A DNA stretch of 64,000 bases from Acinetobacter phage vB_AbaM_ME3. Position 1 is the first letter of the stretch; the number at the start of each line of letters is the position of its first letter. The notes beneath the pieces are model-generated. The model had not been told where the DNA came from. It did not search any database and worked only from the letters and a program-made list of their open reading frames with translations. This document shows, piece by piece, positions 5,447-55,700 of this stretch. The stretch lies in the sequence record KU935715.1; one strand, 5' to 3'. Made by a program: the position numbers and the translations under genes.

Positions 5447-5707
5447 TTAATGACACTCTGCCCAATTTGTTCCGACGATATATTCCATACCTAAAGGAAC
5501 TCGTAAATTTAAATCTAAACAAACTCTAAAGATCTCTTGATTAATAAATTGATCCATAGTATTTGATTCACAGAAATAGTATCCTTCCTCATTGTGGCCT
5601 ACAGAGCTACTATCTTTATATTCTTTAGAGGCTGCCTTAGCTTCCTTTTCATCATCATACATATGAATTTTGAAGAAATCTTCAGGACAGTCAAATTGTG
5701 CTTCATC
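5447..5707 (-). CDS. DNA polymerase (family A, T7 gp5-like), exon 2
   Basis: Begins with the DE of motif C (VYH|DEAQF...) and ends ...GTNWAECH, like the T7 gp5 C-terminus ...NWAICH. Preceded by an omega-G. Confidence 0.8.
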   Translation of the reverse strand, partial: DEAQFDCPEDFFKIHMYDDEKEAKAASKEYKDSSSVGHNEEGYYFCESNTMDQFINQEIFRVCLDLNLRVPLGMEYIVGTNWAECH

Positions 5708-6021
5708 CAATTTTGTTATGGGTACGTCACACCCTTCTCATAGTTTCCTATGAGTTCAGACTATATCATAATCCTGATAATACAATATATCACAGGACTC
5801 CTATCGTTTTGGAGTTGAACGATTTATCTCCTACTCTACTCACTTCTACATTACTGTATGTTTTCGATAGTCGTTAGGCATTTAGAGCATATGCTCATTT
5901 AGCACGGGATTGGCATATGCATTAAATACACTTAGCTTTCCCCGTTTAGATAGGTTTTACAATACGAATTACTTCGTAAAGCCACTCTTATTAGACTAAT
6001 AATCTAATCGGATATTTCCGA
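5708..6021 (-). mobile_element. group I intron (no ORF) in the DNA polymerase gene
   Basis: Exon 1 ends in U (..TACCAU|). A GAGUGG guide sequence pairs with CCAU + UC to form P1. The R-like element aacGACUAucg and S-like element GAUAUAGUC form P7. P9 is a hairpin CUCAUAG-GAAA-CUAUGAG. The terminal G immediately precedes exon 2. Splicing restores the HDE motif. Confidence 0.8.
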
Positions 6022-8820
6022 ATGGTACACAATCATTAAATAAACTTTTTTCTTTTCATCTTCTTCAGTATCAACTAAAGGATCACCTAGTATACCAAGT
6101 TCCTCAAGTCTTCTACAAACTCCAACAATAGTATATTTAACACAAATAGCTCCAGCAGATTGAAACAATAAGTTAATTAAACTATGTTGGCTTCTTACAA
6201 ATAATTTTCTACCATCAATACCAATAATGTATTGTTTACCAGTAGACTTCCAAAATGCTTCTACTTTATCTCTTAATTCTTTAAGGGCAGGTACAGCATC
6301 CCAATAAGCTAAGAACAATCGTTCTGACTCAGCTTTATTAATTCTTAACATCTTAGCTAATTTTGCGGCTTGCGCTCCGTACATACAAGCATAAGAGAAA
6401 GATTTGGCGTTATCTCTTGTAATATCTAACTTATTCGCATTGATACTATTACCTGTAACAGATACACAACTATGTCTACGAATAATAATATAACTAGAAG
6501 GTACAGTTACACACCATACATCTTCTTTTTCTACTTTCTCTTCAGTAATATCATTAACTGTAATTTTAAACCCATCTACATTTAAAGGAGGTTGATCCTT
6601 TAATAAAGATATAGATGTTTGATATAAGTTACTACCATTTAAATCTTTAACTATAAGAAAAGGAGAAGAGCCAGAAAGTCTTTCCATTAAAATTAAAGTA
6701 TTAATAAAATCATAATCTAACGATTGAACAATAAAACAAGATTCTTTTTTACTAAGACTAATAACTTTATCAATATTATCCTTAACAACTTGATAAGAGC
6801 TTTTCTCTAATGTTCTTTCATCATGCTCTAAGATACCATTAGCAGGAATAAAACAATTTAAATTAGTACTTAAATAATTCTTCAAATCTCTAGCTAATAT
6901 AGTGATATGGTTTTCAAGATCACGATTATATAAAACAACTCTATGATTTGCAGTAACACGTTGGCTAAGCCTATCAGTCACAATATTAATCATGACATCT
7001 TTATTAACACCTTTTATAATATCAGAAGGAGTTGTGTATGTAATAGTTTTAGTTTCACTGTTCCAATTAGCAACTAGTGATGTAGGAGTTATACTAGAGT
7101 GATCTACCCAACCATCTTTAGTCAGTATTTCTGTATCTAAAGATAAACAATGAATATCATTCGGCTTCTCCGCGATTAATGCCTCTGCTAAAGCTGCACC
7201 ATCTGAATACGGGAGAACATAATGACCCTGAATCCTTGCCTCTAATGAAGAGAAGTCAAAACCGAATTGTTTTCGGCCTGGACCACAAGAGAATAAGCTA
7301 CGCATACGGTCTCCCCCAGGAGAAGACACACGAGGAATATTACAAACAACTTTATGACGGTATCTACCGCCATTAGCACCTAATGTGTCAGCAGGCGTTC
7401 CTATTCGACCATTTTCCCTAACTTGACTAAGAAATCCTGTTAATGGATCCCCATCATCATTCTCTTTACTACCAGCAATAGAATTACGTCGATGTTTAAA
7501 TGTAAGATACTTTAATACATCTTCTACAAACTCAGCTTCTTTTCCTAAAGCTTTTAAGTTATCACAAATCTTTTTCTCAGTACCAATTCTTAACATAGGA
7601 CTAACAGGTACTTTAATACTGAATCCACCTTTTTGGGAAAGTAGGAAAGAAGCTAAAGCTCTTTCATCTTTTAATCCAAGAATATCTAATCGATGCTGCT
7701 TATAAGGTCCATTAAGAGTATTGTCAACATAACGAAGAATAGCTTCTTCCATTTTAGTTTCACTAAGTTTATGTTTTTTAGTATCTTTAGTTAGATCTCT
7801 TTCTTTCCACTCCATAGGATCCCATCCTAAGTCAAGTAAGAAAGCTTTAAGATAGTCTAAATTATCAATAGATCCAGGAATTAATTCCTTTAAACAAACT
7901 TCAGGATCAATAGGAAGAGGATATTCTCTACCCTCAAAAGTAACTATAGTTTTATCTTCATTTACTTCAGCTCCAATTCTTGTAATGAAGTTAAGCATAT
8001 GAGAAGACAAGTCTCCATTCTTCTTGATTTGAGTTTTAGGAGGTTGATACTCTTTAGCTTCCCCTTTATTAAGAGGACGAGGAGGTAAGATAGCATCTAC
8101 TTCAAGTTTAATCCTATCTAGAATCCCTTGAAAGTATTCCACAGCTTCTACAGCTTTTTCACTCTCAAAATGGAATCCTCTAAGCTCTTGAGACACAGTA
8201 AGAGACATGAGCTTAACTTCCATTCGATAAGCTTTTTCATATATCTCCCAGCCTTTATCACCCATTTCTTCTAATAAGGCAACATATATATTTGCTTGTG
8301 TAAGAGTATCTCCCTCACAATATATTACCATTTCTTCTGAATAGTTTTCAAAGTCATGGAAATCAATCTTAGGTACTCCTAGAGTTTTACCCCATGCTTC
8401 AACACTATGACCACCAAATCTATCTTGTTTTAAAAGTTTTGATAAAAGTAACGTATCAATAAATTTAATAGGTCGACCAAAGAGAGTATCTGTCTCTCCT
8501 TCATAACCTACACGATAATCAACAACGTTAAATAATTGAAGCATAACCATATCGTATGCAATACCATTATGAAAGATCAACTCTTCACAATCTTTTAAAA
8601 GTTCTTTAAGATTATCAGAAGTGCATTCATCTAATTTTAACGATATAACATCATCTTGATTATCAAAGTCCCTAATAGCAATACACCACAATCTTGCATG
8701 TGGCTTTAGTACCATAGGTTTTAAAGTGTAATCTAATAAGTGTTCTATGAAACCATTTGTTTCAATATCCAGAACAGCTCTTCGAAAACGTTTAGTCATA
8801 ATTTTCCTAAAATTGCACAA
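6022..8820 (-). CDS. DNA polymerase (family A, T7 gp5-like), exon 1 including the intein
   Basis: 3'-5' exonuclease motifs VLDIETNG, HNGIAYD and YCEGD. Polymerase motif A FDFSSLEARI and motif B RDNAKSFSYACMYG (T7: RDNAKTFIYGFLYG), then RSQHSLINLLFQSAGA. The ORF reads through into the intron (..YHSEISD*). Confidence 0.9.
6448..7149 (-). mobile_element. mini-intein (234 aa) in the DNA polymerase, after DIH
   Basis: N-terminal block A is CLSLDTEIL, starting at the Cys after DIH. Block B is VTANHRVV. Block F-like is DVWCVTVPSSYIII. It ends ...VTGN, followed by the +1 Ser. Removing it restores T7-like spacing of 10 aa between DIH and RDNAK. No LAGLIDADG motif was seen. Confidence 0.7.
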
Positions 8821-11210: not shown

Positions 11211-11900
11211 TCAGACATTAGTACATCCTATTACTACCTTATTAATTCTTCTAGTAACCATCATTCCAGAAGGGACAGATAAAGTATAAATCTTATCTTC
11301 ATATGTAGATTTTATAATATCATTAGAATCAAATGGAGCTGTATTAGTTTCTAAATAATAAGCACTAGTCTCATTGTCATTAATGATAACTGAATATCCT
11401 TTTAATACACCTTCAGCTTGGATAGCATCTAATTCATCTTTAGTATAAGTTCTATCAAAATATAGTTCAGGGATATTTTGGATATCCCTTTTCCCTGTGG
11501 TGTATAAATAATTATTATGATCAAGATTAATATTATGAATATAATCTACTTTATGAGTAGAGCCTTCATCAGTATATTCAAGATAAGGTATTTGAGAATC
11601 AGGTGTAACTGTAAGTAAAGATAGCCCTAAAGAACTAGTAATAGTAATTAAGATACCTGAATAATCAACACAACTATAGTTAGAACCTTTTTCAAAACTA
11701 ATACTAAAGTCAGAATTAAATTGAGCTATAAGATCATTATCAAGATTTACATCTTTTAAACGTTTCCACCCATTATTTGTAAGAACTGAAGTGTATTTAT
11801 CAAAATAATTTTTATAATTCAAAATCCAATACTCCAGAAGGAACATCATCAATCGCTCTAATTTTTTGATAATTAGTATTATCACCTTCCTGATTAGCAT
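11211..11900 (-). CDS. hypothetical protein (start probably internal; the ORF overlaps nrdB by 89 nt)
   Basis: ORF track. Confidence 0.35.
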   Translation of the reverse strand: MLIRKVIILIIKKLERLMMFLLEYWILNYKNYFDKYTSVLTNNGWKRLKDVNLDNDLIAQFNSDFSISFEKGSNYSCVDYSGILITITSSLGLSLLTVTPDSQIPYLEYTDEGSTHKVDYIHNINLDHNNYLYTTGKRDIQNIPELYFDRTYTKDELDAIQAEGVLKGYSVIINDNETSAYYLETNTAPFDSNDIIKSTYEDKIYTLSVPSGMMVTRRINKVVIGCTNV

Positions 11901-36995: not shown

Positions 36996-39900
36996 TTAAG
37001 CCTTAAATAAAATAATATCAGATTTTAAAGAGTTTGAATCTGTAGTTAAAAAGGTAAAAGAGTTTTCACCAAAAACTTTCCAAACATAACTCAAATAAGC
37101 ATCTCCAGATGGTGATATTTGTAATGAAATTTGATTTTGAACTACTCTAAGTAAATCTGAATCACGTAAGAATAGTAAAACATTATTATTTTGAGAGCTT
37201 TTAATAGCATATCCTGAAGGAGGGTCTACTAAATAATTAACACCATCTCTTAATCCTATACTACTCTCAGTTGTTATATATAGAGCTATACTGAGTTTAT
37301 TTGTAGTATTTGTTAAAGAAGAGAATCTTGATTCTGAGTTGGTTCCTAATTTGGCATAAGCTCTATAAAATTCACCATCAATAGTTCTGGTTTCATCGCC
37401 AGCTGTACCATTAATAGCAGGACGTCTAAAAGTAGTTAACACTAAACATTTATTAATTCTGCTAGGTTGCAGACTTCCAAACCAAACATTGCCATTTTGA
37501 GTTATACTGGCATACTGAGTGACAGAACCATTTTTCATTTGTAAAGTATCCACGGCTAAATCTTTAATATTAGCTGTATCAACTTTGATACTACCTAAAT
37601 TAGCACTAATTGCACTTAAATCAGTTACATCAATACTTTCAGCTTTAATACTTTTAGTTACAATGTTACCACCATCGATTCTAGTAATATTACCTTGAGA
37701 GAATTGAAATGGTTTAGTTTGACTAGCAGATACTTTTTCAAGCATAAACCCAGTCCAGTAAGTTGTAATACCAGTATTTACATTTCTAAGATAATAAGAC
37801 AAATATGGATTAGTTCCACCAGCTGTAAACTTAATATACACTTGTTTCCAACCATCGGAAGCAGATAATACTAGATTACCAGTTCCAGTTCCCGTACCAC
37901 CAGATGAAGTAGCTCCTTCTCTGATAACAGCAGCTAAATTAACTGAAGTTGCAGTAGAAGAAGTTGTTCTAACATAAGCACTAAGAATATACTGTTGTCC
38001 AGTATCTAACTTAAGCCATGCATTAGTAGTGTCACTAGATGGATGCAAATAATAATATGAGTTTGCAGAAGTAGAGACATGCTTAAAGCTATTAGGACCA
38101 AATAATGGATAGTCTTGACTCAATGTATTTGTAGCTCTTTCACCATAACCAGAAGGAAGTGTTGAGTAATTCGAGAAATTATCTAAACCTCCATAAATCA
38201 TATTACCAGAACTTAACAGAATTTGATCTGTAGTAACTGTATCTGATGCAATCTTACCACCATCAATACTACCTCCGCTTGCAACCCATGCTGTATCAAT
38301 AGCTTGAGTAATCAGAGTTCTCTTTTCATAGTAAGTAGCAAAATTAGTATTTAAAGTTGCACGTACTACATCAGAAGTAACATTAAGATTAGACAACAAA
38401 GGATTAACTTGATTAAACAAAGTTGTATAAGCTGTGTTATAAGCATCTTTAGTTGCAGTAGCAATTCCATAAGAATCAGCAGTAGCAGAAATTGTAGTTT
38501 TCTCTTTTAAGATATTATCCCAAATAAGTTTTAACTGTTTTTTCTCTACAGGTGTTAATTTACCATCCGCAGCAATATCATCCACAAGGGAGTTTGCATT
38601 AGCTAAGTTCATAACTACTGTAGGGTCAACTTCAACTACTTTAGCATTAGCTACCCAAGTTGTAGTAGATGTTCCACCATTATAGTAATTCAACCATCTA
38701 ACTGCTATATGAGTGGTAGTCGGTAACATTCTAGCATTTAATAGAACATTTTGACCTATACCTTTCATCATAGATGCCCCAGTTCCAGCAGGCATGATAT
38801 AAGCTGTTCTCTTAACCCAATCTAAATGAGCAGCATGACCACCAGACCAGAAATAAAAGTTAGTATTAACAGCTGAATTATCAGCTCCAGTATCATTTGA
38901 AATACCATGACACCCGATAACAACTCCAGCTTCATTATAACAATGAAGACCAAAATAATCAGTACCAGCAGTATTATTACTAGCTTTCATCCATATACTA
39001 ACTTCATATGCTTTAGAAGGGTCTACAACAAATTTATCTGATAATGCCATAACATCACCAGTTGTAGTGATAGTATGAACAGGTACTGTATAACCAAGGA
39101 AAGCTTGATTACTGACAGTACCAGCACTCCATCTATCAACATTACCACTTCTAGTTACGTTATTAACTAAATTACCAGTAGTATTATCAACATACTTGAT
39201 CAAATCTTCAGGAGCAGGAGACCAAGAAGTATTTCTATTACCAACTTCAAATTTAAAATTGGTTATAGTTAATACACCTTGGAATGCATCTAAACGAATT
39301 TGAACTAATGTAGCAGCAGATGAGCTAGTTACTCCAGACATTTTCCCAACATAAAAGCCAGAAGAATTTGAAGCAGATACTGTAACAGATGGAGCTCCAG
39401 CTGCCCAAGGTACATTAGATAACTGAGGAAGAAATCCTCCAGTTATAGTAGACCCAGATACAGACCAATTAAAACTTACAGTAAATTCATCATTACTATA
39501 TTTTTTACTTAGATTTCCAGCAGTATCATTTAAATAATAAGCTGTTAAACTTTGGTTACCTGTATTGTTACCTGTCAATGTAATAGCATTATCAGTATTA
39601 AGGGCTAAGTTAGTACCACCAACAGATACTTTATCAGTATAAGTCTTAGCACTATCTGCAATTGCCTTTAATAGTTCAGATCTTCTTAAATAATAAGTGG
39701 CAAACCAACTTTGGAACGTACCTCTGGTAATATTACTTGTACTACTCATGTTGCTTAATAATGGAGGAATATTTGCATTCAACGTATCATAAGCAGCACG
39801 ATAAGTAGAGATTGAAAGTCCATAATTAGAAGCTTGCGCTTCATAGTTAGCTTTCTCATTAGTAATTGAGTCCCATTCAGTTTTTAACCATTGTTTCTCT

Positions 39901-40556
39901 AATGGTGTTAACTTATTATCTGAAGATATATCAGATAAGACAGAATTAGCAGTATCAGCATCAGATTGAGCTTTTGCAATACTTTGTAAGAAAGTAGTTG
40001 GAACTAATGAAGCATTGTAAGCCATTGGTGAAATAGTTTGACCGCTTACTGTATAAGCTGTAGTTCTTAAAACAGGAGTTAAATTCTTTTGATGAGTAAT
40101 ATCATATTTTGTCCCACCTCTTAAATAAACATATTCAACAGAGCTATTGCTCATTTGATTAATATTCATTACAGGTGATTGACTACTTGTAGTCCAAGCG
40201 TAAACAACAGTTGTAAAAAATCTATTAACTACTTGAGCTCCCCAACCCGATGCACTAGATGACCATTCAACATTTAAAGAGAATGTTCCAGTGTTATGAG
40301 ACGCCCAAGGAGCAGTATACCTACTTAAAGGAACATAAATTTTAAAGTTATATTGACTAATACCTTGAGCAAGTGCAAAGGTAACTGGATAATAAGTGTT
40401 AGAATCTAAGCTGGATAAATCTATAGTAGTAGTTCTATCAGATTTTTGTTCATCTGAAATAGCCTTTAATAATTCAGAACGTCTAGCATAGTAAGTAGCG
40501 AACCAACTTTGGAATGTTGCTCTTACTACATTACTTGTAGTAGACATATTACTCAA
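36996..40556 (-). CDS. tail fibre protein (1186 aa) with three copies of the shared junction module
   Basis: The module (KLTPxEKxxLKxxW...LLSN(M/L)xxTSxxxRxTFQxxFATYY) occurs at residues 1, ~215 and ~690. A fourth, frameshifted copy lies just upstream (40557..40740). Confidence 0.7.
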   Translation of the reverse strand: MSNMSTTSNVVRATFQSWFATYYARRSELLKAISDEQKSDRTTTIDLSSLDSNTYYPVTFALAQGISQYNFKIYVPLSRYTAPWASHNTGTFSLNVEWSSSASGWGAQVVNRFFTTVVYAWTTSSQSPVMNINQMSNSSVEYVYLRGGTKYDITHQKNLTPVLRTTAYTVSGQTISPMAYNASLVPTTFLQSIAKAQSDADTANSVLSDISSDNKLTPLEKQWLKTEWDSITNEKANYEAQASNYGLSISTYRAAYDTLNANIPPLLSNMSSTSNITRGTFQSWFATYYLRRSELLKAIADSAKTYTDKVSVGGTNLALNTDNAITLTGNNTGNQSLTAYYLNDTAGNLSKKYSNDEFTVSFNWSVSGSTITGGFLPQLSNVPWAAGAPSVTVSASNSSGFYVGKMSGVTSSSAATLVQIRLDAFQGVLTITNFKFEVGNRNTSWSPAPEDLIKYVDNTTGNLVNNVTRSGNVDRWSAGTVSNQAFLGYTVPVHTITTTGDVMALSDKFVVDPSKAYEVSIWMKASNNTAGTDYFGLHCYNEAGVVIGCHGISNDTGADNSAVNTNFYFWSGGHAAHLDWVKRTAYIMPAGTGASMMKGIGQNVLLNARMLPTTTHIAVRWLNYYNGGTSTTTWVANAKVVEVDPTVVMNLANANSLVDDIAADGKLTPVEKKQLKLIWDNILKEKTTISATADSYGIATATKDAYNTAYTTLFNQVNPLLSNLNVTSDVVRATLNTNFATYYEKRTLITQAIDTAWVASGGSIDGGKIASDTVTTDQILLSSGNMIYGGLDNFSNYSTLPSGYGERATNTLSQDYPLFGPNSFKHVSTSANSYYYLHPSSDTTNAWLKLDTGQQYILSAYVRTTSSTATSVNLAAVIREGATSSGGTGTGTGNLVLSASDGWKQVYIKFTAGGTNPYLSYYLRNVNTGITTYWTGFMLEKVSASQTKPFQFSQGNITRIDGGNIVTKSIKAESIDVTDLSAISANLGSIKVDTANIKDLAVDTLQMKNGSVTQYASITQNGNVWFGSLQPSRINKCLVLTTFRRPAINGTAGDETRTIDGEFYRAYAKLGTNSESRFSSLTNTTNKLSIALYITTESSIGLRDGVNYLVDPPSGYAIKSSQNNNVLLFLRDSDLLRVVQNQISLQISPSGDAYLSYVWKVFGENSFTFLTTDSNSLKSDIILFKA

Positions 40557-40782: not shown

Positions 40783-43700
40783 TCAGAAATTGCTAGCATC
40801 AATATCTTCTAAAGCTGGTTTCCATTCAGTAGCTTTATTACCTCTTTCGTATTGAACTCTAGAGATATAATAAGTACCTGCTGCTGCTGCATAGAGTACA
40901 ATATTAGGATTAACTGTAGTCTTAGTTAAAGACACAGTATATCTTTTCCAAGTAGTACTTAAAGGAACTACTGAAGTTCCAGTATGACCTTCATTAGATA
41001 CATTCAAAGATATAGCAGCACTAGCCTTAGCCCAAAAGGATACTACTATAGGAATCCCAGTTTCTTTTAATAAATTATTAAGAGTTCTGTAAATACCTTG
41101 TCCAGATCCAGAAGTAACCATTCTCAAACATTTAGTAGCACCATTTGGAATAGTAGTATCTGTAAAGATATCTACAGTTGGTGTACCATTAGTTGTCCAA
41201 TCGTTTCTATTAACTTCAAAAGAAGAGTTAAATAAATAGTTTCTACTTCCAACTTCAATTGAATCAGTATAAGCATTAGCTCTTGCTACATTTGCATCTG
41301 CAATAGCTTTTAATAAAAGAGTTTTTTGATCATAATAATTCGAGAAGTTAGTCTGGAAAGTTGTTCTAACAATATCAGAAGTGGTATTTAAGTTAGTCAG
41401 TATAGGAGTAATGTACCCATTAAGAGTATCATATCTACTATTATATAAACTTGTAGAAACACCTAGAGTATCTGCTTGTTGAACAAGAGTTGGTTTTTCT
41501 TTAACAATTTCATCCCAAATAACTTTAGTATTCTTTTTCTCTACAGGAGTTAATTTATTATCAGCTGCAATGTCAGATAAGGTAGAATTAATTGAAACAA
41601 TTTTATTCTCTGTATCTGCAATAGCAGGAGACCAATCTGTAGCCTTATTACCAATTTCTAATTTAACAGCTTTTGCAAATAGTGCTGCCGCTGTACCACT
41701 AGTTGTAGACCCATTATTATCTATTCGTATATACCCAACTTGACTAGAAGCGTTCGTTTTAAACGTCCAAGTGATATATTGATAAGAAGTTGTTAAGTTT
41801 ATTTTAGTAAATTGGTAAGGTGTACTACCACCTAACCAATAAATATCCATAGTAGAGAAAGCGCCACTACATTTAAACCAACCAGAGACAGTATAAGTTG
41901 TATTAGGATTTAAAGAACCACCATCAATTAGATAGCTAGGTAAGTAAACTTCAGTCGTACCTGTAGTACTTACTGTTCTTTCATCTCCAGAAGATAATAA
42001 TAAATTAGTACCTCCAATAACAAGATCATCAACTTTTTTCTGGGCACCAGCTTGAGTCTCAAATAGATCCATATTCATTACATATGATCTATCTGTATAC
42101 ACAGTCATATCTGATTCCCATGCAATACTCCAACCACCTTGGAAGGAATCTGGAGGATTAGTATGAGTAATAGCAGCTCTGTCAACATATACAGCTGGAT
42201 AACTCCAACTACCTGTTTTTTCTATAATAATAACAACATTCTTATTTGCATCCAAAGCAAAAGAAACGTTAGTAATATTAATACCTTTAGCTGCAACTCT
42301 TTGGTTAGCAGGAAAAGGATTAGTTGTAGTATAAGCATAAAAACCTATATCAATTTGAAATTGAGCATCAGTATTAGCAGTATAATTATACCCAGTAATA
42401 GTTAAATCACACATATAAGCACTAAGCTTAATAGGTGTATGAATTACTAAAATATTAGAAGATCCACCATTTAATCGAGCAGATGCTACTTTAGTAAATA
42501 CTTTACCAATTCCACTATCTAGTCTTTCAATATTATTACTTGGTATTTTAGCTGCATACATTTCATCTACTTGACTACTTAAAGTAGTAGGTGTTGTAAA
42601 GCCACCATTACCAACTCCATTATTAACAATAATATCAATAACATGGGTACCAGCTGTTACACTAAATGAAACAGGACTAGTTGTATAGCTAGTTGCACTA
42701 AATATTAAGTTACCATCTAAATAAATAGCATGAGCATCATCACCAACAAAATTACCTAAATTAATAGTTTTTGTAGTATTTACTGTAAATATAGCTCTAT
42801 GATAGATTACTGAATTTAAATTAGTACTAGTCATCGTGCTTCCATCATTTGCATAATAGGAAGACGTTGTAGGGAACAGATTAATATAAGAATAATCAGG
42901 TACTACATTTATAGATAAATAAGGTTGAGTCTTACCAGCAACAAACACTGCCCATTGATTAGATTTAGAATAATCAAACTGATTTGGTAGCATATTACTA
43001 CCGACAGATTTATTAATATTTAAAATCTGATCATTTAACGTAGCACTAATTTCAGCAGGATTATAACCATTTTGGAAATTAGTACTAGAGCCAACAGTAA
43101 TAGCATCAGCTCTTATTTGAGAAGCTGTAATACTATTTGCAACAATTTGAGAACCATCAATTACAGTTGTAGTAGTGCCATAAAGTAACCATTCATAAAT
43201 GTGATTACCGACATTAACACTATTACCATTACCATAAAGTCTAAAGTATCTAGCTGTAACACCTGGATAGAAAGCATCTTCAGTAGAAACAGTTTGGTAT
43301 TTAACTCCAGCACCATCACCTGTAGAAGGATTGCTTGTACTCCAACCAGTATTAGTAGAATTACCTGCAAAATAATTCCAAGTCACACCATCAATAGAGT
43401 ACTTGATTTTATACCAATAATATCTTGCGTCTTGAGCATACCAATATGCAATACTTTGAGTAACTGCATAAACAGCGCCAAGATCAACTTCAATATAATC
43501 ACGTTCAGTACCACTATTTGAACTGTTTCCAGTACCAAAAGATACATAAACAGAACCAACTTTATAGTTACCATCATTAGGAACAGTTGAAGTAGATGTA
43601 CTACCATTTGAATTAATAGTATAAGTTCTACCAGCTGTTAAATTACCAGCTTTTGATGTACCACCTTCTAATACAATTTTATCTGTAGTTAACGAATTAA

Positions 43701-46700
43701 TCTGAGCAGATTTAATTGTAGCATTAGCAATAAGAACACTATCAATATAAGTACCAGCAGGAACAGGTGTTCCATTAATAGTACCTGGAGAAGTTAAAAC
43801 AATGAATGGTTTTTTATTAGATGTTGGAGAACCAATGTAGAATTGATTTGCCTCAACAGCAAAAGCTGAAGTAGGTGTTCCATTATTAGCATCTGCAATT
43901 AAACCGTAACCAGCAACCAAACCACCCGCATTAACTTTAACAGCATACTTAGCTAAAATTCCATCAGGGCCACTAATAGCTTCATTCACAACTTGAGTTT
44001 GAGCTTGAAGCTCTGTAGCACTCTTAACAAATGCAGTAGCCACTTCACCTTGCTGTAACATAACATCTGTTACAATGAAGTTAGGAGCATACCCAGTAGG
44101 TGAATAAATAATAATATTAATATGCTTTAAATCTGCAATAGTTGTAAAAGTAAAAGTAAGACGACTTGGACTAGTAGTATTAATCGCTAACGAAGTACTT
44201 AATTGACTATTAGAATTTGCAGAGTTAAGTCGATGAATAATAACATTTACATTCTTATTATTTGCATCTAAAGCTTGAGCATAAAACGAAAGAGTATACT
44301 TAGCATTAGATAATAATAATTCGTTACCAGCACTAGTTATAGTCTGAATAAGCCCTTTAAAAGCTGTAGTTGTATCAGTACTATTAACTAAACACCAAGT
44401 CTTGCCATTCGTATCTTTATAAGCTGAAATAGCTGTACCTGAATTATTTCTCCAACCGTATAAACCATTAGTAGTATTACTAAAATTACCATTAGTAATA
44501 ATATTGTCACTACCAATACTTGCAGAAAGAGTTTTAATCTCTTGAGCAATAGCTCCATCAACTCCAGCTTGAGTAAGATACTTAGAATCAATTTGAGCCA
44601 TAGTAGGCTTAGCGGCATCTAGATTCTTAATGTCTGATTTCCAAGGGGACCATCCAGTAGTACCTACCGAGAATCTAGTATGAGTATTTAAACTATCACC
44701 AGCTGTCCAAACTTGAATGATATAACCGCCACTACTGTCATTCCAAGGAATTGTAGTTTCTAATACACCATAACCTGTAATGCCACCAGGAGAACCTATA
44801 GCAGAACCAGTTTTAAATTCTTGTACTTTACGTCTAGGATAATTAGCCCAATACCAACTTGGAGGTTGGTTAACATCTCTAGTATCTGGTAGTTGTAAAG
44901 CTTGCGCAATGTTAGAAGCAGAAATAGTTTGAGCTCCAGCTGCAATAGCTGTATCTGCGTCAGCTTTAGTATAGTAATTATTCATTACAGTACCAAAAGA
45001 ACCTATCAGAACTTCATTTCTATTTGGAGCATACATTTTATCTACTAATGTACTCAATAACTTAGTAAATCTAAAACCACCAACACTGGCATTATTGTTA
45101 ACGAGCACATCAATAATATTCCAACCAGCAGTTAATGTAAATGTAGTATCTACAGTCTCCATTGCTGAACTTATACTTGATTTAATTAAAATTCCATTTA
45201 CATATAAGCCCCAAGCATCATCACCTTGCATTGGTCCAACATTGATAGTTTTTCCAACAGCTACATATACTCTAGTTCTATAAGCACCAATTTTTCCAGT
45301 TGGAAGCGAAAGAGTTCCATTACCTACCGCTGTAGATTCTGTAACGTATAGAGTTGATTCTATAGAATAAGTATTAATAATACTATAAGTAGGAGCAACT
45401 GCTACATAAGCTTCAGGTCTTACAAAGATAACACATAACCATTTATTAGCTTGAGCAAAATCAGGATTAACTGGAAGACGACCATTATAACCATCTACAG
45501 TAAAAGCAGATCTTAACTGTTCGTATCTAAATGCTTGAGCATCATCTTTAGTAGTTAAAGTATCCATCTGACTTTGATAGTCAGCTAGAGTAGACTTAAT
45601 TGCTGGAGGAACATCATCATAGTCTGTTAAATCATATGCCTCAATAGAAGCTAAATAAATTTCTAAAGGACTATCTGTTGTCGGGCTAGGAGTAGAGCCT
45701 GTTGATTTATTGAAATAAACATGACCAGTAGTACTAAACGTACCAGTTGCGCCACATTCAATTCTTCTAATATAAGTCTCATATCTTCCTGTACCTTTAT
45801 TATTCCCAATAAATACATTTCGAGAGTCATTTCCAATAGCATTAGAAGCTGGCAAAACAGTCCACCCTTCAGGAAACTTCATAATATATTTTACTAGAAA
45901 TACAGCATTAGCTCTTGAGTTAATATTTTGATAAAACCCTGCCCAACCTGGAGAACTCAATGTTGAACTTGAAATTTTCATTTCAAAACCAGATGTAGTA
46001 GGATTATCAGAACTCTTTGCTACTCTAGCAGGAACAGTTCCTGAATAACCATTTACACTATTTGTGCCTACTTTAAATGTAGGATCTGCATATAATAATT
46101 TGCCACTATTAAATGACCTAGCTAAATATCCAGCATCTGATACATCTTTAGTTAAAGTGGTTGTAGTTGATTCTAAGTTAGTTATCTTAGTAGCTTGACT
46201 ACCACTCATACCAACAGCAGTATTAATATTATCTATTGCTGTTGCTGTTGAATCTAATTGACTATCAATATCAATTGCAGCTTTAGACCAATCAGAAGGA
46301 ATATTACCTACTTCATATTGAGCTCTACTTACATAGAATGTACTTGCAGCAGAACCATAAATTCTTACTTGAGGTATACCCGCACTAATTACTTTAGTAG
46401 TGAAGAAGTATCTAGTCCATGTAGTACTTAACGTTGCTTCATATGTACTGATATCGTGATCACCAGGAAGTAATCTAACTTTAACTCCAGCTGTATCTGC
46501 TTTTAACCAAACACTAAATGTTATCTCTGTACCAGCAGGTACATTATAAGGTAACGGTCTAAGTATTCCGTGTAAAGTAGCAGTAGTTATAACTTTAAGA
46601 CATTTAGTTGCAGTGGTTGGAATAGTAGCATCATTAACTATTGTTAATGTAGGAGTACCATTTGATAACCAACCAGTTGTATTCACTTCAAAAGAGGAGT

Positions 46701-49700
46701 TAGGTATTAAGTTTGCACTACCTACTTGTAGTGTACTCTTAAAATCAGAAATCTTACCAGCAGTAGCTTGATCAGCTTGAGTCTTAGTATAATACGCATC
46801 AATAACTGTAGCATCTAATTTAGTTTGAACTTGAGCAACAGTAGCTACAGTATTATCTGTGTCATCAGCTGACAATAAGGCTCTTACATGGAAACCTTGA
46901 ACCTCACCTTTATACCCAGAAACTGTATGGTTAATAAAGAAGCCAGGAGAGAATTGAGGATAAATATCTTTTTGAGAAGTTAAATCAAAAATCATCTCAA
47001 CAAATTGCCAATTACCATCAGCAGTAACAACTCTACTTGCACTCGAATACTGAGATGTAGTTCTAATACCATTAGGTTTAATTAATAACCAGTTAAAGCC
47101 ACAACTACCACCACTACCAACTTCTCTTCTCATCCAAACAGAAAATTTATAAGCTCTATTATTAGGAAGAATAGTTCTAGAATAATTCCAACAGTTAGCT
47201 ACTGTAGTAGGTTTACTAAATACATAAGGACCTACTTTACCATCAGTAATAGTAGTAAAATAGTTTGTTAAATCATAGCCATAGTGAGATTGCCATTCAG
47301 AAACTAATTTCAAATTATAATCAGCTGTTAAAGAATCACTATCACGAACAACCTCAAGTTTAGAACTTAATTTAGTATCAATAGCTGCAATAGCTTCATT
47401 AGTACCAGTCTTCGTATAATAATTATTAAGGACAAGAGCATCTACTCTAGGACCTAAATTATCAACTAAAGATTTAGTATTCATTGCTGGATACATGTTA
47501 GTAACTTGACTTCCTAGGGAAGTAGCTACAGATACATTTTCATCTCCAGTACCTTCATTAACAAGTAAGTCAATACAATGCCAACCAGCACTTAAAGCAA
47601 AGGTAACAGCAGTACCACCAGAAGATCTAGGAACACTATCATAGACTTTAGTGTTATCTACATACATAGCAACAGAACAGTTATTAGTCATTGCACCTAA
47701 ATTGATAGTCTTAGCAGATGTAACATTTACAAATGTTCTATATGCAATAAAGACATTATCATGAGTACTTGAAACTAAACTTGTACTACTTCCAACATAA
47801 TTAGAAGTAATAACTGTATTCGCAATTAAATGTTTATATTCAGGAATTACAGTTTCAGCTTCACCACCACGTTTAGTATAAACAACTTTCAACCATTTAT
47901 TAGGTTCTTTATCATCATATTCAGTAGGTAATGTTAATTGAGGATAAACAGAACTTTCTACTGTTGTAATACGTTGATTAATAGCTGTATCTGCATTAGT
48001 TGTAGAAGTTGCTAATGTAGTAATTTTTCCATCTAAACTTCTATCAGCATCTGCAAATTCAGTACGAACATTAGTAAAGCTTTGAGCAGTTGCTAATTTA
48101 TCTGAAGCATAAGTACTTTGGAAAGTAGTTAAATCAGCTGAAGTTTTGTTAAGAACTTTAACTATAGCTGGAGTAGATTTATCAAACGAAGTAGCTCTAT
48201 TACCAAGTTGTAATTGAACTTGTTTAACTTCATACCAATCACCAGCAGCAAATGCTCCAGAAGGAACAGAAATAGCAAATAATTGATTAGTAGATCCAGT
48301 AGCACCTAAATTAGCTACAGTTAATGTTCCAGTGACAAATTGCCAATTAGGAGTAACTGTAAATAATCTATTAGCTATAGTGGCTCCATATGAATATGCA
48401 TACCAACCTAATTGTTTAGTTACATTAGATCTAACCCAGAATGAAACGGTTAATGAATCACCTATAGCAGGTTTAGCATCCGCTACTAAACAACTATGGA
48501 AATAAACTCGTGCTAACCCATTAGTCGCATTTGCACTTACAAACGTTCCTCTATAATATTCTTGATCTCTATCGATCCAAGAAATTGTAGTGTTACCCCA
48601 TTCTTGAGCTGCAACACCATTGCTTTCTAGTGACCAAAGATTTTGACCACCAATCGTCATATTCTCAAACGACGATTTTACAGTATTTAAGGTGTTAGCT
48701 TGAGTATCGAATGCAGTAGTGTTTGCAGATTGATAAGATTCAACTTTTGAATCAATAGCTCTAATTGTATTTACAAAACTAGAATCAAATGGAGTAGGTC
48801 TTGAGCCTTTCTCAATTTTAACATTTCTGATTTCATAAGTACCAACTAATCCAGCAAATCCAAAATGAATACTTGGAGTTGTATAATTAGCTGCAAAATC
48901 ACGAACATGATAAACTCTTCTCCACTTTCCAGCCTCTAGAGTTTCCCCTGTAAGAGGTGTAGTGGCAAGATAACCCATTTGAGTACCCCAGTAGACACTA
49001 GGACTACCAATAGTACCACCAGAAGTAATACGTATATCAAAAGATACACATACTTTATTTCCAGTAGTACATAACTCAAATAATCTAGGTAACTTAGTCA
49101 TATCCATAGTACCACTAACGTAGTTCGCAGCAGCATTAGTAGAGACAACTGTTAAAATAGTTTTATCTGAATTAATAGAAGATGTTAATCCTGCTTCTGC
49201 TGTTCCAGCTGCAAAGAATTTTCCTGGATCATCATAAAGATTATCACCACCTAAAATCATACTATTAAAGGAAGTTGTTAATTGACTTAAACTTTGAGCA
49301 GTTGCACTATTTGCATCTGTTGAAGTTTGTTGAGCTTGTGCAATCTTAGCATCAGTAGCTGTGACATTAGCTGCAAACATTGCATCAATGTCGTAAGGAC
49401 TCTGACTCCAATCTGTAGGCTTAACATTCAATTCTCCATCAAATAATACAGCCCAATGAACGGTAGCTGTAGTTGCAGCATCAGTTCCACTAGGAAATAG
49501 ATAGAAAGAGATATTACTACCAGCACCAGCTGATGTACGAGTAAACGTAATCATTCTGATTTGCTTGGTAGCATTAATTACTTGATTTGCAGCAACAGTC
49601 GATAAACCCTGACTGCCATTAACCCATGCTCCAACATATGAAGTTGTATCAGCACCACCTCTTAAATGAGAAGCACAGAATACTAAAGTATATTTTTCTC

Positions 49701-52700
49701 CAACAGTTAAAGCACCACCACCAATATTATAAGATCCGAAACCATAAGTAGTCCCAGCTCTAACAAGGGCGACATTAGAGGCTATTAATCTATTTTTACC
49801 ATTACTAGTTAGATTACTAAATTGAGTATTAATATTACTGAATTTAGTAGCAGTTGAAGAATCTAAATTAGTAACAACATCAGTTAAATCTTGAATCTTA
49901 CCTAAAGCGACAGTATGGTTATTAGTAGCTAATGTCTTAGCATCAGTAGCTACAGTTAAAGTAGCGGCATTTGCATCACTAGCAGCTTTACTAACAGTAT
50001 TAATCTTAGCATCAGTGGTAATAAACTGTTTACTAATTGATGTATCACTTGCCCAAGGACTTGGATTATTATTATCACCTATTCTAACTTCCAACATCAT
50101 TTGCTCTAAATAAATAATAGCACCTGATAACCCAGTAGGGTTAGAAATTAATAAAGGACAATACGTACCATCAGCCGTAATTTCTACAACTTGACTAAAA
50201 CGTTTTAACGACGTATTAAGAACATGTCTTACACGAGGAGAAGCCACTGTACCATAGATATTAAAATCAATTGGCATACTAGCTAAATTAGATTTAGCAT
50301 AGAAACTAAAGATATAAAAACCTTTAGTTAAGAATAAATTTCTAGTTGTGTAAGCTCCAGCTTCGTTAAAATAGACACCACTACCAACTGAAGTAGTCGG
50401 AGATAAGGTATATCTATTTACTGTTGGATTTTCATAACTAGGTTCAACAACAAAGGTAGTCCCTGAAGTCCAAGGAGGATTAGGAACACCAATAGGAGCA
50501 GATATACTTAAAGGTAATAAATTAACACCACCATTAGGCATAGTAGAAAACTTAGTATCAATAGTTCCAAATTTAGTTGCTGTTGAACTACTTAAATCTG
50601 ATACAGTTGAAGTTAATGTTGCAATAGATGAGTTAGATGCAGCAACATCACCTTTTAATTCAGTTCTGTAACTTTCTAAACGATCTGCTACAGCTTTAGT
50701 TGCATTTGCGGCTACAGTTTTAGCATCATTAATCTGAGCTTGAGAATTGATATAATCTTGCTTTGTATCCTGATAAGCAGGAGTCCAAACAGAACGCTTA
50801 GTTCCCAATTCAATTTGTACGTTACTAATTTTAACAATAGAAGTAAAATTATTACCATTAGCTTTAACAGTAATATTATAAGGACCAACTGTTGAAGAAG
50901 TAGAACAAATAAATGCAAAGTCAGCTACTTTGTTTACAGCATAAGGAAACCCTGCTAAACCATCTTTAACATTATCAACATACATTTCCTCTACTATAAT
51001 TCCATTATTAACTCCAATACTAACATCATTTAAAGTACCAGATTCAACTTTAACTTTAAAAGAGATAACAAATTTAGTATTAATTGGAAGAACAGTATTA
51101 ACAAAAGTATTAATAACTCCTGATGCGTTACTTGAACTCTTAAAGGAGTAAGCATACTCTTCAGGAATAGGAGTAAATAATGAAGGACTTCCAACACCTA
51201 AAGCATCTTTAAAGATCCATAAGTTAGGAGATGACATTAAGTTGTCTCTCTTAAACCCAGCCTTTAAAGTATTAATATCTGTAGATGTTGTTCCAGCTAA
51301 ATTAGTAATAGATTCTTGAAGATCAATAATTGCTCCAGATACCTCTGTATCTAAATCAGATACAGTTGTCTCTAGTGTGTTTAATCTAGAAGCTGATGAA
51401 GCAGCACTAGAAGAAGTAGCATCTAACTGAGATCCAAGACGAGCTTGTGATGCGCTAACAGGTAATAAACTATAAGGAGATAATGATTGACCTTCAGCCC
51501 ACTTAGAAGGGTTAGGATTTGTTCCATACTGTTGTTCTAACATCATACGTTCAATGAACATAGGACGACTAACTGTAGATCCAGCTGCATTTACAACAAA
51601 ACGAACAGTATATTTACCAGCAGTAGTAACATCAAAAACTTTAGAATATCTTGTAAGAGACGTAGCTAAAGTAATGGCTGTATTATCTAAAGCATTTACA
51701 ATATTACTTGCGTCTCTCATTAAATTTACAGAAATGCTTTGATTCGTAATAGACGAATATGCATAAAAACTAAGAATATATTTCCCAGGGTTTAAATCTG
51801 TAAATTCAGCTACAAAAGTGCTAGGAGAAGTGGCTAAAACAACATTAGCTGCTTGGTTAGGATCATACCTAATACCTTTTAGTCCTGTAACGATTGTACT
51901 GTCATATAAAGCAATAGTGTCTGTACTACCTGAAGGATAGAAATTACTTACATCTACAGGATTAGTAACTTTACTACTTAGTAAATTAATTCCAGAGTTA
52001 GGAACTGTAGTGAATTGAGTAGTAAGTCCAGAAATTTGATTAGCACTAGCTGTATCACCATCAGTAATTGCTTTAGTTAAATTAACAACAGTTGCGTCGA
52101 TCTTACTGTTTAATACCTTAGGCATTTCTTTATAGTCAGACCAATCAGTCGGCTTATTACCTAATTCAATCTTCCATCGACTAATGATTAAACCACCATT
52201 AATAGAGTCAGTATGAAACTGAATATTAGGTACAATATCAGTTGTTAAAGGAGTAGTTAAATTAATAACTTTATAGTATTGACACCAACCACCAGAAGAT
52301 AAATTTCCAATAACTCTATCAAAGTCTACATAATTGTAATTAGAAGCTAAGAATAATCTTGGTTTTCCTGTAGGTACTTTAGTAGTATCAACAGCTTTAG
52401 CCCAAAAACTAAATACAATAGAAATACCAGTAGTGTTTCTAAAATTATCAGTAGTAACTTTTAAATCAGTATCAGCACTCCAATAATTAGTTATATACGT
52501 ATAACCTAAAGTAGTAGCTGGATCTTGAATAGTAAGCTTTAAATACCCTTCAGGGGTAATTTCTCTTAATAACCTAGAATTACCTACAGTACCAACACGA
52601 AACTTATCTGTATAAGCTGCTAAATTAGCACTACCAATAGTAAAATTGTCAAATGTACTTTGTAATGTATTTAGTTGACTAACTGCATTACCTACAGCAG

Positions 52701-55700
52701 TTGTTCTATTAGTAGTTTCAGTAGCAATTAATCCTCTAACAGCAACATCATTATTTTCAATCGTTGTAGTAATAGATGTTAATTGAGAACCAAAAGCTTC
52801 ATCAGCATTAGCTCTAGCAGTAGCTTCATTAGTTACAGCAGCATTAACTTGATTAATAGCTTTTGTTGTTATCCAACTAGGTTTAGTATACGCTGAAGTA
52901 ACTGTTCCTTGTTGTAACTGAACATTACGAATTTCAAGTGTTTTACCAACTAAATCAGTAGCAGCTACATTGTTATCAGATGCTACATATCTAATACCTA
53001 ATAAACCATCATAAGAATCTGAAGGAGTTCCAGTATTTGTATTTATAAGATTGTTAAGTCTTACAGTAGTCCATTTATTAACTTCTACAGTTTGTAGAAA
53101 ATTAGCAATCGGATTTGCTTGTCCATAGATGTAAACAAAAACTCTAATCTTAGAGTATGCAGATTTAATTTCAAAAGAAACAGAATGTGGCTGTTCTAAA
53201 TTAATTTTAGACGGAAATTCAGTACTTTTTAAATTTCGCCATAAATTGCTAAAGATTCCACTAGATTGAGCAGTAATCGTTAATTTCTGATGTTGTAAAT
53301 CAGAAGTCATCATTTCTTTAGTAGCAGTACCGTAATCAGAACTACCTGAATTACTAAACCACCATAAATTATCTGTCCCTACTACATTACTTCCAAAAGA
53401 AGCTTGTAAAGAATTAACTTGATCAACTACAGTATCAATAGCTGTAGTTCTAGCTGTTCTCTCGTCTACAATTAAACCTTTTACTGCTACATCATTATCA
53501 TTGACTTTAGTAGTAAGAGCTTGAAATTGACTAGCAAAAGATGCCTCACTTGTTGTAATAGCTTTATTGATTTCAATAATAGAAGCTTCTAAATTACCAT
53601 TACTAGAGACCCAATCAGATGGAGCTGTACCAGTGCCTATTTGTTTTTCCACCATAATCATATCAACTAAGATATAATTATTGTCAGAGACAGCTTGATT
53701 ACCAGTATCACAATAAATTAAAAGATATCCACCTTCAGCTGGTACAGTATTAGGTACTGTAAGAACTGAAGAATATCTTACTTGGGTAGTCGTTAAAGCT
53801 ATTTCAGGACCGTTAATATACAAACCTGAGGATGCTCTAAAAGCAAATTTAAATTTAGTTCCAGCGATTCCTGCTTTAACATAAGCAGATACAATATAAC
53901 TGGTATTAGGTTTTAGTCTTAAATTATCATAAGTAGTTATAGTTTTAGCAAAAGCTAAATAACTGTTAGCTCCAGTCCCAGTCTTTTTAATCTTCCATTG
54001 TTTAGCAACAGAAGGATCTCTTAATGTACTAGGTTCTATTGTAGGAGTAACTGCATTAATTGTAATACTCTTAAGTCCTACAGGATCACTATATTCAGCA
54101 GCTAATAGGTTAACACCACTTCCACTAAAAGAACTCTGTAATAAACTTACAGACTGAGCTAAGGACTGGTCTGCATTGGATCTAGTTGTAGCCTCATTAC
54201 TAACTAAAGAAGACGTAATGCCTTTCTCTGTTTCAAAATCAGATCTTAACACTTCTAATAGTTGAGCATTACTTTCAATATCATTTGATAAAGCTTCTTT
54301 TTCAACTTGAATAATAGATCTAGTTTCAGTATCTAATGTTGTAAATTCAGTTCGAACTTGATCAATCTCTTGAGCTCTAGCCTGAGTCTCATCAGCAATA
54401 GCAGTCTGCAATGAAGAAATATTAGCATTACTGATAACTTCTCTATCTAATACATCGAAAGGAGATTCGATCCAATCAGTTGTCGCTATAGCATCTCCTC
54501 TCACTAACATCGCCCAATGTACAGTAGCTGTACCTGAAGTTGTAGCTTGAGGATAATAATAAAAATTAATTGTTGAAAAATTATTAGTTGTAGGAGTAAA
54601 AGTAGTCTTAAATACCTTCCTTACACTTCCTTTAGTAGTTGTACTAAAAGGAATAGCTACAGATGAACCTTGCCAACCTCTAATCTCAGCAGGAGCTGAA
54701 GGCTCAGAAGAAACATCATGAGTAATACATGCAATTAATGTATATTTCTCATTAATTACTATTGGCTCTCCAATAGTATATCCACCAATTAAATAAGTTC
54801 CAGCAGTACGAACTAGAGCTACATTTGACTTTTTAAGAAGGTTCTTACCAGCTGTATTTAAATTAGTAAAACTTGCATCTAATGTATTTAGTCGAGTAGT
54901 AATTGTTCCAACTTGAGAAGTTCTAATATCTCTTTCTTCAGCAATTAATCCTCTAACTTGAGTATCATTTGATGTAACAGTTGCACTAAGAGCTTCAACA
55001 GTACTAGCTGTAGCAGCACTTTGAGTTGCAGTAGCATCAGCTTTTTCAATAACACTAGCTAAATTAGTTTGCATAGTGCTTGAATCAGTTTCTAATGTAT
55101 CAACACGAGCATCCAGTGCTGTCATTGTAGAAGAATTGGCAATGCCATCTTCAATACGAGTAGTAATTTCTTCTCTTACGTTTGCAAGTGCTGCATCATT
55201 ACTTGTTTTATAATTAGTTATATTTTGAAGTAATTGATCATCACCAGAGATACGAGCAGTTGCTTCGTTAGTAATACCATTTTCTAACTCTGCAATTTTT
55301 CCTAATCTATCAATTTGTTCTAATGTAATGTCTCCAATAAGATCATTAACATTATTCATAACAGTTGTATTATTAGAATTTATTTGACTATTAACATAAT
55401 CAATCATCTCTTGAGTGACAGTTCCAGCATCAATACGGGCATTAAGGTCGTCAATCTTTTGAGATAAGATATTAATATCTTCAATAGCTAAATTATCAAT
55501 TTTAGCATTCAACTGTGTTACAGCAGTTCCTACTTTACTATCAATAGCAGCATTACGATCAATTACTTCCTGATTAAGATCAGCAATTAATTGATCAGTT
55601 TTACTTGTAATAACCCCTTCAATTCTAATAAACTCTGAATTGTAATAAGCTGCCTTAGCATCTACATCAGCTTGAACAGAGTCAATTAAAGTATTAGCAG

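Follow-up and report, generated by a model that had tools for sequence, protein, structure and literature searches.

Layout of the polymerase gene

Here it is shown that a T7-like family A DNA polymerase gene is interrupted twice in a 64,000-nucleotide stretch of Acinetobacter phage vB_AbaM_ME3 (KU935715.1; this whole stretch is the window referred to below), once by an intein and once by a group I intron that separates the codons for His and Asp in motif C (HDE). The gene lies on the minus strand between positions 5447 and 8820, and joining exon 1, which extends to 6022, with exon 2 from 5707 gives, on translation from an ATG at 8799, a precursor of 1012 amino acids (aa) that is reduced to 778 aa by excision of the intein. 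It is very likely that the locus produces one T7-like family A polymerase of 778 aa that needs two successive self-catalysed excisions, of RNA and then of protein. A first-pass annotation made from the sequence alone had proposed both interruptions of a T7 gp5-like gene, a 234-aa intein directly after the residues DIH and a 314-nucleotide (nt) intron inside motif C, and its boundaries for the two elements (7149..6448 and 6021..5708) were exact (Table 1).

The open reading frames (ORFs) listed for the locus hide this arrangement. The longer one (6004..8820, 938 aa) ends in ...MIVYHSEISD*, and the apparent HSE and the terminal ISD were correctly attributed to read-through into the intron, which starts right after the CAT codon at 6022 (exon 1 ends ...GTG TAC CAT and exon 2 opens with GAT GAA at 5707). 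The second listed ORF (5447..5710) opens at TTG 5710 with MDEAQFDC... and ends in ...GTNWAECH*, an ending that had been likened to that of T7 gp5, which does end in PNWAICH. The other landmarks of T7 gp5 are DIH at 504-506, RDNAK at 518 and HDE at 653-655. Removal of the intein restores the spacing from the His to RDNAK, as had been claimed, to 10 aa as against 11 in T7, and this spacing is identical to that in uninterrupted close homologues. The gene start is the one position that had to be moved: the longest ORF begins at TTG 8820, which had been taken as the start, but all aligned homologues (763-1021 aa, opening with M(T/A)(K/N)RF) begin where ATG 8799 (MTKRF...) sits, and therefore this ATG, 21 nt downstream, is the likely start codon.

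Homologues that lack the one or the other insertion were found. Hundreds of metagenomic proteins of 763-780 aa can be aligned with the 778-aa product over 99% of the latter's length, at about 48% identity, and the product also aligns in a single piece with the polymerases of Edwardsiella ET-ABTNL-9, Acinetobacter Phab24 and Cellulophaga phi4:1 at 41-43.5% identity. Uninterrupted homologues read KPND(I/L)HS(I/L/V)NA(K/R)KLGI... and equal the ligated sequence with no gap or extra residue, the predicted ligated extein peptide being ...KPNDIHSINANK... and the intein-less DNA target ...AAACCAAATGATATTCATAGTATTAAT.... An intron-less counterpart is also at hand: a 1012-aa homologue (P0001, 92% aa identity) on the syntenic 69-kb contig L001 lacks exactly these 314 nt. 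Its protein continues without interruption across the site (...MIVYHDEAQFDC..., containing VYHDEAQFDC), and its DNA there, ...GTGTACCAT GATGAAGCACAA... / GTGTACCAT GATGAAGCACAATTTGAC, is identical base for base to the predicted ligated exon junction, GTGTACCAT↓GATGAAGCA (arrows mark junctions here and below).

Table 1. Coordinates of the polymerase gene, its intein and the parts of its intron
Feature	Positions in the window	Strand	Remarks
Exon 1, N-extein	7150..8799	-	3'-5' exonuclease domain and polymerase domain up to ...AEKPNDIH; translation, homologue alignment, matches to T7 gp5 and Klenow structures
Intein	6448..7149	-	234 aa, CLSLDTEIL...VSVTGN; Cys1, block B T66-x-x-H69 (TANH), Cys213 (block F position 4), V-T232-G233-N234
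Exon 1 continued, C-extein	6022..6447	-	from SINANKLDITRDNAKSFSYACMYGAQ (O-helix, motif B) to ...KVYLMIVYH, whose last His opens the motif C HDE
Group I intron, subgroup IA2	5708..6021	-	314 nt; 5' splice site after U (CAU↓U); 3' end G (UUG↓GAU)
Internal guide sequence GAGUGG	5982..5987	-	3' strand of P1; direct reading
Catalytic core	5759..5872	-	from P7 5' strand GACUA (5872..5868) to P7 3' strand UAGUC (5763..5759)
P7.1	5846..5860	-	hairpin within the core; covaries
Linker GAGUAGAGUAG	5831..5841	-	joins P7.1 and P7.2
P7.2	5811..5831	-	covaries
P3 3' strand	5800..5805	-	P3 covaries
P8	5770..5799	-	covaries
P9 hairpin, GAAA tetraloop	5737..5754	-	P9 element spans 5720..5754 with the further 3' hairpin
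Further 3' hairpin GGGUGUGACGUACCC	5720..5734	-	precedes the terminal G at 5708
Exon 2	5447..5707	-	DEAQFDC...GTNWAECH and stop codon; catalytic Asp and Glu of motif C, C-terminal His

The group I intron in motif C

In a 1-kb scan the intron matches the Rfam model Intron_gpI (RF00028) at 80.1 bits (gathering score 50; E 1.6e-20), from 6002 to 5737 and over model positions 1-253 of 253, which together with the intron-less allele upholds the proposal of a group I intron between the two codons. Each of the elements that had been named for it could be located: a P1 with a U-G pair at the 5' splice site, the GACUA/UAGUC P7, the GAAA-capped P9 and the omega G. In P1, the exon sequence CCAU and the intron's UC are paired with the guide, and the last U of the exon faces a G in a U.G wobble. 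P2 has a GUAA loop, P3 is formed by CCUAUC/GAUAGG and P4 by ACGGGG/UCCCGU, P6 is short, and P6a is a 12-nt hairpin; the omega G is the terminal G of ...AAAAUUG↓GAUGAA. The intron has no sense-strand ORF, with stops throughout all three frames, again as first described. Its subgroup is IA2, of which the extra helices P7.1 and P7.2, joined by a linker containing G-U-A, are the hallmark (PMC3428280); both helices and the linker are present.

The fold is supported by thermodynamics and by covariation. The nested helices come out of a plain minimum-free-energy calculation (z = -4.0). For covariation, IA2 introns were collected from viral contigs by core pattern, and 15 ORF-less introns that nhmmer could align to most of the length of the window intron made, together with the latter, a set of 16, aligned with MAFFT and scored on a hand-drawn structure of 46 pairs (P2-P9 with P7.1 and P7.2); pair counts in P5 and P6, which MAFFT aligned poorly, are noisy. 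Paired cells amounted to 88.7%, as against 33-41% when the partners were slid by 1-3 columns, and the covariation score was 0.574, as against 0.09-0.14 in the slid controls. Compensatory changes on both sides were seen in 36 of the 46 pairs, none of 500 shuffles reached the observed values, and the window intron itself forms 45 of the 46. The hand-drawn structure took the place of one from RNAalifold on the same alignment, in which the 5' strand of P7 was wrongly paired to a portion of the GAGUAGAGUAG linker; the cause is the pseudoknot that P7 makes by crossing P3. An nhmmer profile of the 16 introns found this one copy only in the window.

Introns at the same junction occur in three metagenomic contigs (L002, L036 and L044) and in Pseudomonas phage SPA01 (L045; OP875100, Pakpunavirus). 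They share with the window intron the junction ..TACCAT↓intron↓GA(T/C)GAA.., the U before the intron, the GUGG of the P1 guide, the P2 hairpin, the GAGUAGAGUAG linker, P7, P9 and the other core motifs, the terminal G and a terminal 3' hairpin of different sequence. Their P1 pairs CCAUAA with UUGUGG, with the intron side compensatory (AA/UU, as against UC/GA in the window). Unlike the window intron, they measure 792-1454 nt and encode an HNH endonuclease of 154-163 aa, its gene lying in the P6 region, and the one in L036 also carries a LAGLIDADG-type ORF. Because these relatives at the same site carry an HNH ORF and the window intron has no sense ORF, the latter is best read, on this comparison, as derived from a mobile IA2 intron and lacking its endonuclease. 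The L036 intron (L036:5767-7220) is the 1454-nt one, and its two endonuclease-type ORFs are of 163 aa (HNH) and of 198 aa, with a LAGLIDADG-like motif. In SPA01 (54907-58413), the intron is unannotated, and the record gives each of the three pieces (exon 1 of the polymerase, the HNH gene and exon 2) as a hypothetical protein.

The insertion site itself appears to be a known one. According to PMC3428280, the polymerase genes of the T7-like phages PhiI and W31 have introns at site 881 in E. coli Pol I numbering, and a phmmer alignment to Klenow chains (query 794-936, chain 430-568, chain residue 1 being residue 324) makes the His of the window His881. This identification thus rests on a secondary citation and alignment arithmetic, and it is made at the level of residues. 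As described there, the PhiI and W31 introns are like the window intron in host gene (a T7-type family A polymerase), in site and in subgroup, IA2 with P7.1 and P7.2; they differ in holding an HNH homing endonuclease gene in P6a, where the window intron has its ORF-less 12-nt hairpin, and the window intron differs from them in a 30-nt, two-hairpin insertion in the P1 loop.

Nucleotide identity to L001 is at its highest, 97%, in 150 nt surrounding the intron site, as against 71-93% elsewhere in the gene (window 5550..5850, codons 901-950 of the precursor). Such a peak is compatible with a co-conversion tract, if the intron was gained or lost recently, or with the homing or guide sequence being under constraint. 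Insertions at other places in the gene were also encountered. The gene for a polymerase 87% identical to that of the window (L003) contains two other group I introns near codons 485 and 516, which lie at 7410-7738 and 7880-8216 and score 87.1 and 71.1 bits with Rfam, and L044 and L037 have further insertions near codon 485.

The intein in the fingers domain

The intein follows directly after the His that matches His506 of T7 gp5, and the C-extein begins with Ser (+1). The features by which it had been recognized, an N-terminal Cys in CLSLDTEIL, the block B sequence TANH and a terminal TGN followed by Ser, are all in the translated sequence, and fold model and conserved junction residues agree with them. 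From an alignment of the intein with 16 inserts from polymerase homologues (17 sequences in all), an AlphaFold2 (AF2) model was obtained with a predicted local distance difference test score (pLDDT) of 90.9 and a predicted template modelling score (pTM) of 0.83. The top 50 Foldseek matches of this model in the PDB were only inteins, hedgehog autoprocessing domains and BIL domains, the best being 6zgq (E 2.4e-9), and the best PDB match by phmmer (E 0.0068) was the AceL NrdHF intein, in an alignment that takes in both termini. The model thus gives the intein a HINT fold.

Conservation points in the same direction. Cys1, His69 and Cys213 are invariant in 17/17 sequences and Thr66 is nearly so, among relatives down to 19% identity, and the C-terminus reads (T/S/A)G(N/Q), the final Asn or Gln being succeeded in all 17 by Ser, Thr or Cys. 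The family profile matches the window polymerase ORF with E 1.1e-92; Pfam Intein_splicing matches 11 of the 17 (E below 0.1, best 7.3e-5), and LAGLIDADG_3 matches both relatives of 321 aa. Between the window and L001 alleles, the ratio of nonsynonymous to synonymous substitution rates (dN/dS) is 0.22 for the intein and 0.07 and 0.02 for the exteins on either side, and therefore the intein is under purifying selection, although less constrained than the polymerase. A word-indexed protein search with the intein returned 5 matches only, and an exhaustive profile search of 1.84 billion cluster representatives returned 15,023 relatives. In a census of the 95 full-length domains among the top 146 proteins of that search, Cys1 was found in 95/95, the Cys at block F position 4 (F:4) in 91/95, the penultimate Gly in 89/95 and the terminal Asn in 91/95, and all ended in Asn or Gln followed by Ser, Thr or Cys. 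Because of these frequencies, the combination of Cys1, block-F Cys and a Gly-Asn terminus can be taken as a family trait at the level of sequence. In one 787-nt contig (P0125), an intein C-terminus, ...FVSGN, directly adjoins the start of another intein (CLSFDTEILTKDGW...), which shares 88% identity with the one in the window; these are either tandem or nested inteins or a product of chimeric assembly.

The splicing halves are separated by a central insert of about 100 aa (residues ~86-185), which is a folded helix-strand (alpha/beta) domain in the AF2 model. The name mini-intein given to the element at first therefore fits only loosely. The insert has no detectable nuclease signature and no Pfam match. 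The insert aligns with the LAGLIDADG domain of the 321-aa relatives and lacks their acidic motif. Modelled alone (pLDDT 82.6), it gave no significant structural match (best E 0.04; LAGLIDADG enzymes E 0.26-0.7), and so it is through the alignment with the longer relatives that an endonuclease remnant comes out as its likeliest identity.

Inteins of this lineage sit in two registers of the polymerase. Register 1, KPND(I/L)H↓C...GN↓(S/T), is that of the window and of P0001, P0009, P0033, P0058, P0062 and P0103; register 2, KPND↓C...G(N/Q)↓CH(S/T), is that of P0002-P0006, P0008, P0011 and P0123. The two lie two codons apart and give products of equal length, the +1 Cys of register 2 replacing Ile or Leu, and they could reflect sliding of the intein or two independent invasions.

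A second member of the family is found in the window at 11211..11900 (minus strand), where a free-standing ORF of 229 aa lies a short way downstream of nrdB. Over its full length it is homologous to the polymerase inteins (hhalign probability 96.4%; profile E 4.4e-14), but Cys1, the His of block B, the Cys of block F and the Gly-Asn at the end are gone. L001 has a corresponding syntenic ORF of 211 aa. From its sequence, this ORF looks like a catalytically dead, possibly domesticated, intein-derived gene.

Predicted splicing, alternatives and precedents

Expression of the polymerase is predicted to proceed by dual self-splicing, a mechanism for which structure, covariation, conservation and presence/absence polymorphism give strong support. 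At the RNA level, the 314-nt intron would fold into its P1-P9 core and bind guanosine, the transcript would be cleaved after the U of CAU while this is held in P1 by GAGUGG, and the U would then be joined to the GAU beyond the terminal G, restoring the His-Asp-Glu codons of motif C. An unspliced mRNA would meet a stop five codons into the intron, and its product would lack the catalytic Asp and Glu. At the protein level, the HINT domain would excise itself from the 1012-aa precursor by means of Cys1 and/or Cys213, the block B Thr and His, cyclisation of Asn234 and Ser+1, and would join ...KPNDIH to SINANKL... to give an active fingers domain. Both elements would be mobile DNA of the selfish kind, brought in by homing at targets whose sequence is highly conserved. 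Since the intron has no ORF and the central domain of the intein has no nuclease motifs, both appear to have lost an active homing endonuclease in this genome, and they would persist because precise splicing keeps an essential gene functional.

Several observations count against this interpretation. Splicing at both levels, as well as the loss of mobility, is what we infer from the sequences, structures, covariation, boundaries and polymorphism described above. The intron was missed when the full 64-kb window was scanned with Rfam, both at the gathering threshold and at E <= 0.001, and was found by the 1-kb scan; this is an effect of the speed filters and not of a weak match. Because these whole-window scans lost an intron 30 bits above threshold, they give no ground for concluding that the window lacks other RNA families, and their negative results should not be read as absence. 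Within the intron, P5 is weak, with two pairs and an internal loop, and the guide region holds no convincing complement to GAUGAA that could form P10 (the intron of L044 has UUCAU, complementary to AUGAA). The P1 loop (6019..5988) holds two extra small hairpins, and this unusual insertion may or may not affect folding. As for the intein, a Pfam scan of the window copy gave no match to the intein family (PF14890, Intein_splicing), and its penultimate residue is Gly233 in place of the His that most inteins have at block G position 6 (G:6). This His is dispensable, as the active AceL NrdHF intein is also without it and Gly stands here in most of the related domains of the census.

Were the intron a decayed relic that no longer splices, the polymerase would have to consist of two polypeptides, the second translated from TTG 5710, where an ORF is formally listed. 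The loss of the endonuclease may be a stage towards such degeneration, and fragmented phage genes whose products are assembled at the protein level are known (PMC3045599). However, all core helices are intact in an intron that forms nearly every covariation-supported pair and scores well above the Rfam threshold, no Shine-Dalgarno-like sequence lies upstream of TTG 5710, the split would cut a catalytic motif of three residues, and exon sequence around the site is 97% identical to the intron-less allele, as against 77-93% in other parts, all of which makes a two-polypeptide polymerase extremely unlikely. We also think it highly unlikely that the 234-aa insert is kept in the mature enzyme, be it as a permanent accessory domain comparable to the thioredoxin-binding loop of T7 gp5 or as an inactive intein relic. 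The deduced nature of protein splicing, the penultimate Gly and the missing Pfam match leave some room for this idea, as does the free-standing homologue in the same window, which means that members of the intein family can lose splicing function. That dead copy, however, has lost exactly the junction nucleophiles and block B residues that are invariant among distant polymerase-borne relatives, and so shows how relaxation looks; moreover, the dN/dS of the intein speaks against retention, and a retained insert would split the deoxynucleoside triphosphate (dNTP)-binding fingers between the His506 equivalent and the O-helix.

With splicing of both elements as the preferred reading, the route taken by the intein has still to be considered. 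The sequence alone does not discriminate between class 1, class 3 and a relay, and class 1 initiation is taken here as the default. A canonical class 1 mechanism had been implied from the start, and the invariance of Cys1 agrees with it; however, Cys213 aligns with the block-F Cys of class 3 inteins, so that another route is possible. In such class 3 or hybrid splicing, Cys213 would attack the N-terminal scissile bond, directly or by relay from Cys1, and a branched thioester at block F would then be passed to Ser+1. We regard this only tentatively, as rather unlikely. In its favour, the best match in both sequence and structure is the AceL NrdHF intein (PDB 6zgq; PMC7891396), a confirmed class 3 split intein whose catalytic Cys124 (Ala in 6zgq) aligns with Cys213. 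The two share the F:4 Cys, Thr at block G position 5 (G:5), the lack of His at G:6 and F:13, a residue other than Trp at block B position 12 (B:12; aliphatic in both) and a C-terminal ...VTGN, and the F:4 Cys is invariant in the 17-member family and present in all but four of the 95 distant full-length domains. AceL NrdHF is, unlike the window intein, naturally split, 146 aa long, opened by Ala1 and located in a ribonucleotide reductase-related gene, whereas the window intein is contiguous, 234 aa long, provided with a central insert and an invariant Cys1, and hosted by a polymerase. With regard to the class 3 signature WCT (B:12 Trp, F:4 Cys, G:5 Thr), the window intein has Val71, Cys213 and Thr232, which is two of the three positions, and AceL NrdHF has Met, Cys and Thr. 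Against class 3, Cys1 is just as invariant as the F:4 Cys (17/17 and 95/95), which argues that it is needed, as in class 1; the signature Trp is replaced by Val71; position G:5 varies within the family (T, S, C, Q or I), so that its Thr is not a conserved residue; and class 3 inteins, although defined by mechanism, are typically without an N-terminal nucleophile and usually have Ala1. More speculative, and improbable in our estimate, is that the intein belongs to a very large uncharacterised subfamily, with invariant Cys1, F:4 Cys and Gly-Asn and without the usual histidines, that uses a two-thiol relay between class 1 and class 3, slides along its host gene and has a dead free-standing copy kept in the genome.

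All four states of the gene are met among relatives: intein only in L001, intron only in SPA01, both in the window, L002, L036 and L044, and neither in most homologues. In the literature, which was covered incompletely, we met no family A polymerase that carries the two kinds of element together. Because an intron and an intein in one phage gene have precedents, we would classify their combination in a family A polymerase as a new instance rather than a new phenomenon. The first-pass annotation had stressed that two types of element target one essential gene, and both do sit at conserved sites, but this is less unusual than it implied in view of the published intron site and the phage precedents. 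In Pectobacterium phage CB7, as in the window, essential genes of replication and nucleotide metabolism are interrupted at the RNA and protein levels, NrdA and NrdB each by an intron and an intein, and the elements of both phages either are associated with a homing endonuclease or have lost it. Unlike in the window, it is the genes for ribonucleotide reductase that are doubly interrupted in CB7, the polymerase of this phage having two introns and no intein. Escherichia phage nieznany (L046; MN850598, Phapecoctavirus) has, like the window, an unannotated intein in the fingers/O-helix region of a family A polymerase, with Cys1 and ...TLTGN before a Cys+1; it differs in lying about 25 residues downstream, inside motif B (KYG↓...↓CTYGAQ), and in its length of ~320 aa. 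The gene in question (nieznany 95347-98916) is deposited as a 1189-aa 'DNA polymerase/exonuclease' and holds this intein, KYG↓CVPVDNTEVLT...TLTGN↓CTYGAQ, without any mark.

For annotation, the consequence is that the 938-aa product ending in HSEISD is wrong and that the enzyme, once both splicing steps are allowed for, is to be given as 778 aa. Deposited isolate genomes suffer from the same problem, as seen in the three hypothetical proteins of SPA01 and the unmarked intein of nieznany. Current concepts are unchanged by this locus, which adds a well-resolved case of replication genes as refuges for selfish elements. The occurrence of all four states, together with introns at further sites, makes this lineage suited to the study of gain, decay and loss of homing elements. 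The intein may be of interest for protein engineering in view of its nearest characterised relative, a fast class 3 split intein, and of its arrangement of Cys1 and block-F Cys. The points that most deserve specialist attention are the mechanism of the intein subfamily, the two-codon register shift and the dead free-standing homologue at 11211..11900.

The surroundings of the gene are those of a replication module, with a ribonucleotide reductase, a T7 gp4-like primase-helicase, the polymerase, a gp2.5-like single-strand-binding protein, an SbcCD-like nuclease, a ligase and rIIA. The genome is AT-rich (31% G+C) and evidently that of a large tailed phage; a megablast search of the polymerase locus against phage genomes gave no match. 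All ORFs of at least 150 aa in the window are on the minus strand. Among them are a single ORF of 5419 aa at 40783..57042 and, following it, one of 1186 aa at 36996..40556, which matches PHROG 5499 ('host range and adsorption protein', a profile of 5292 positions).

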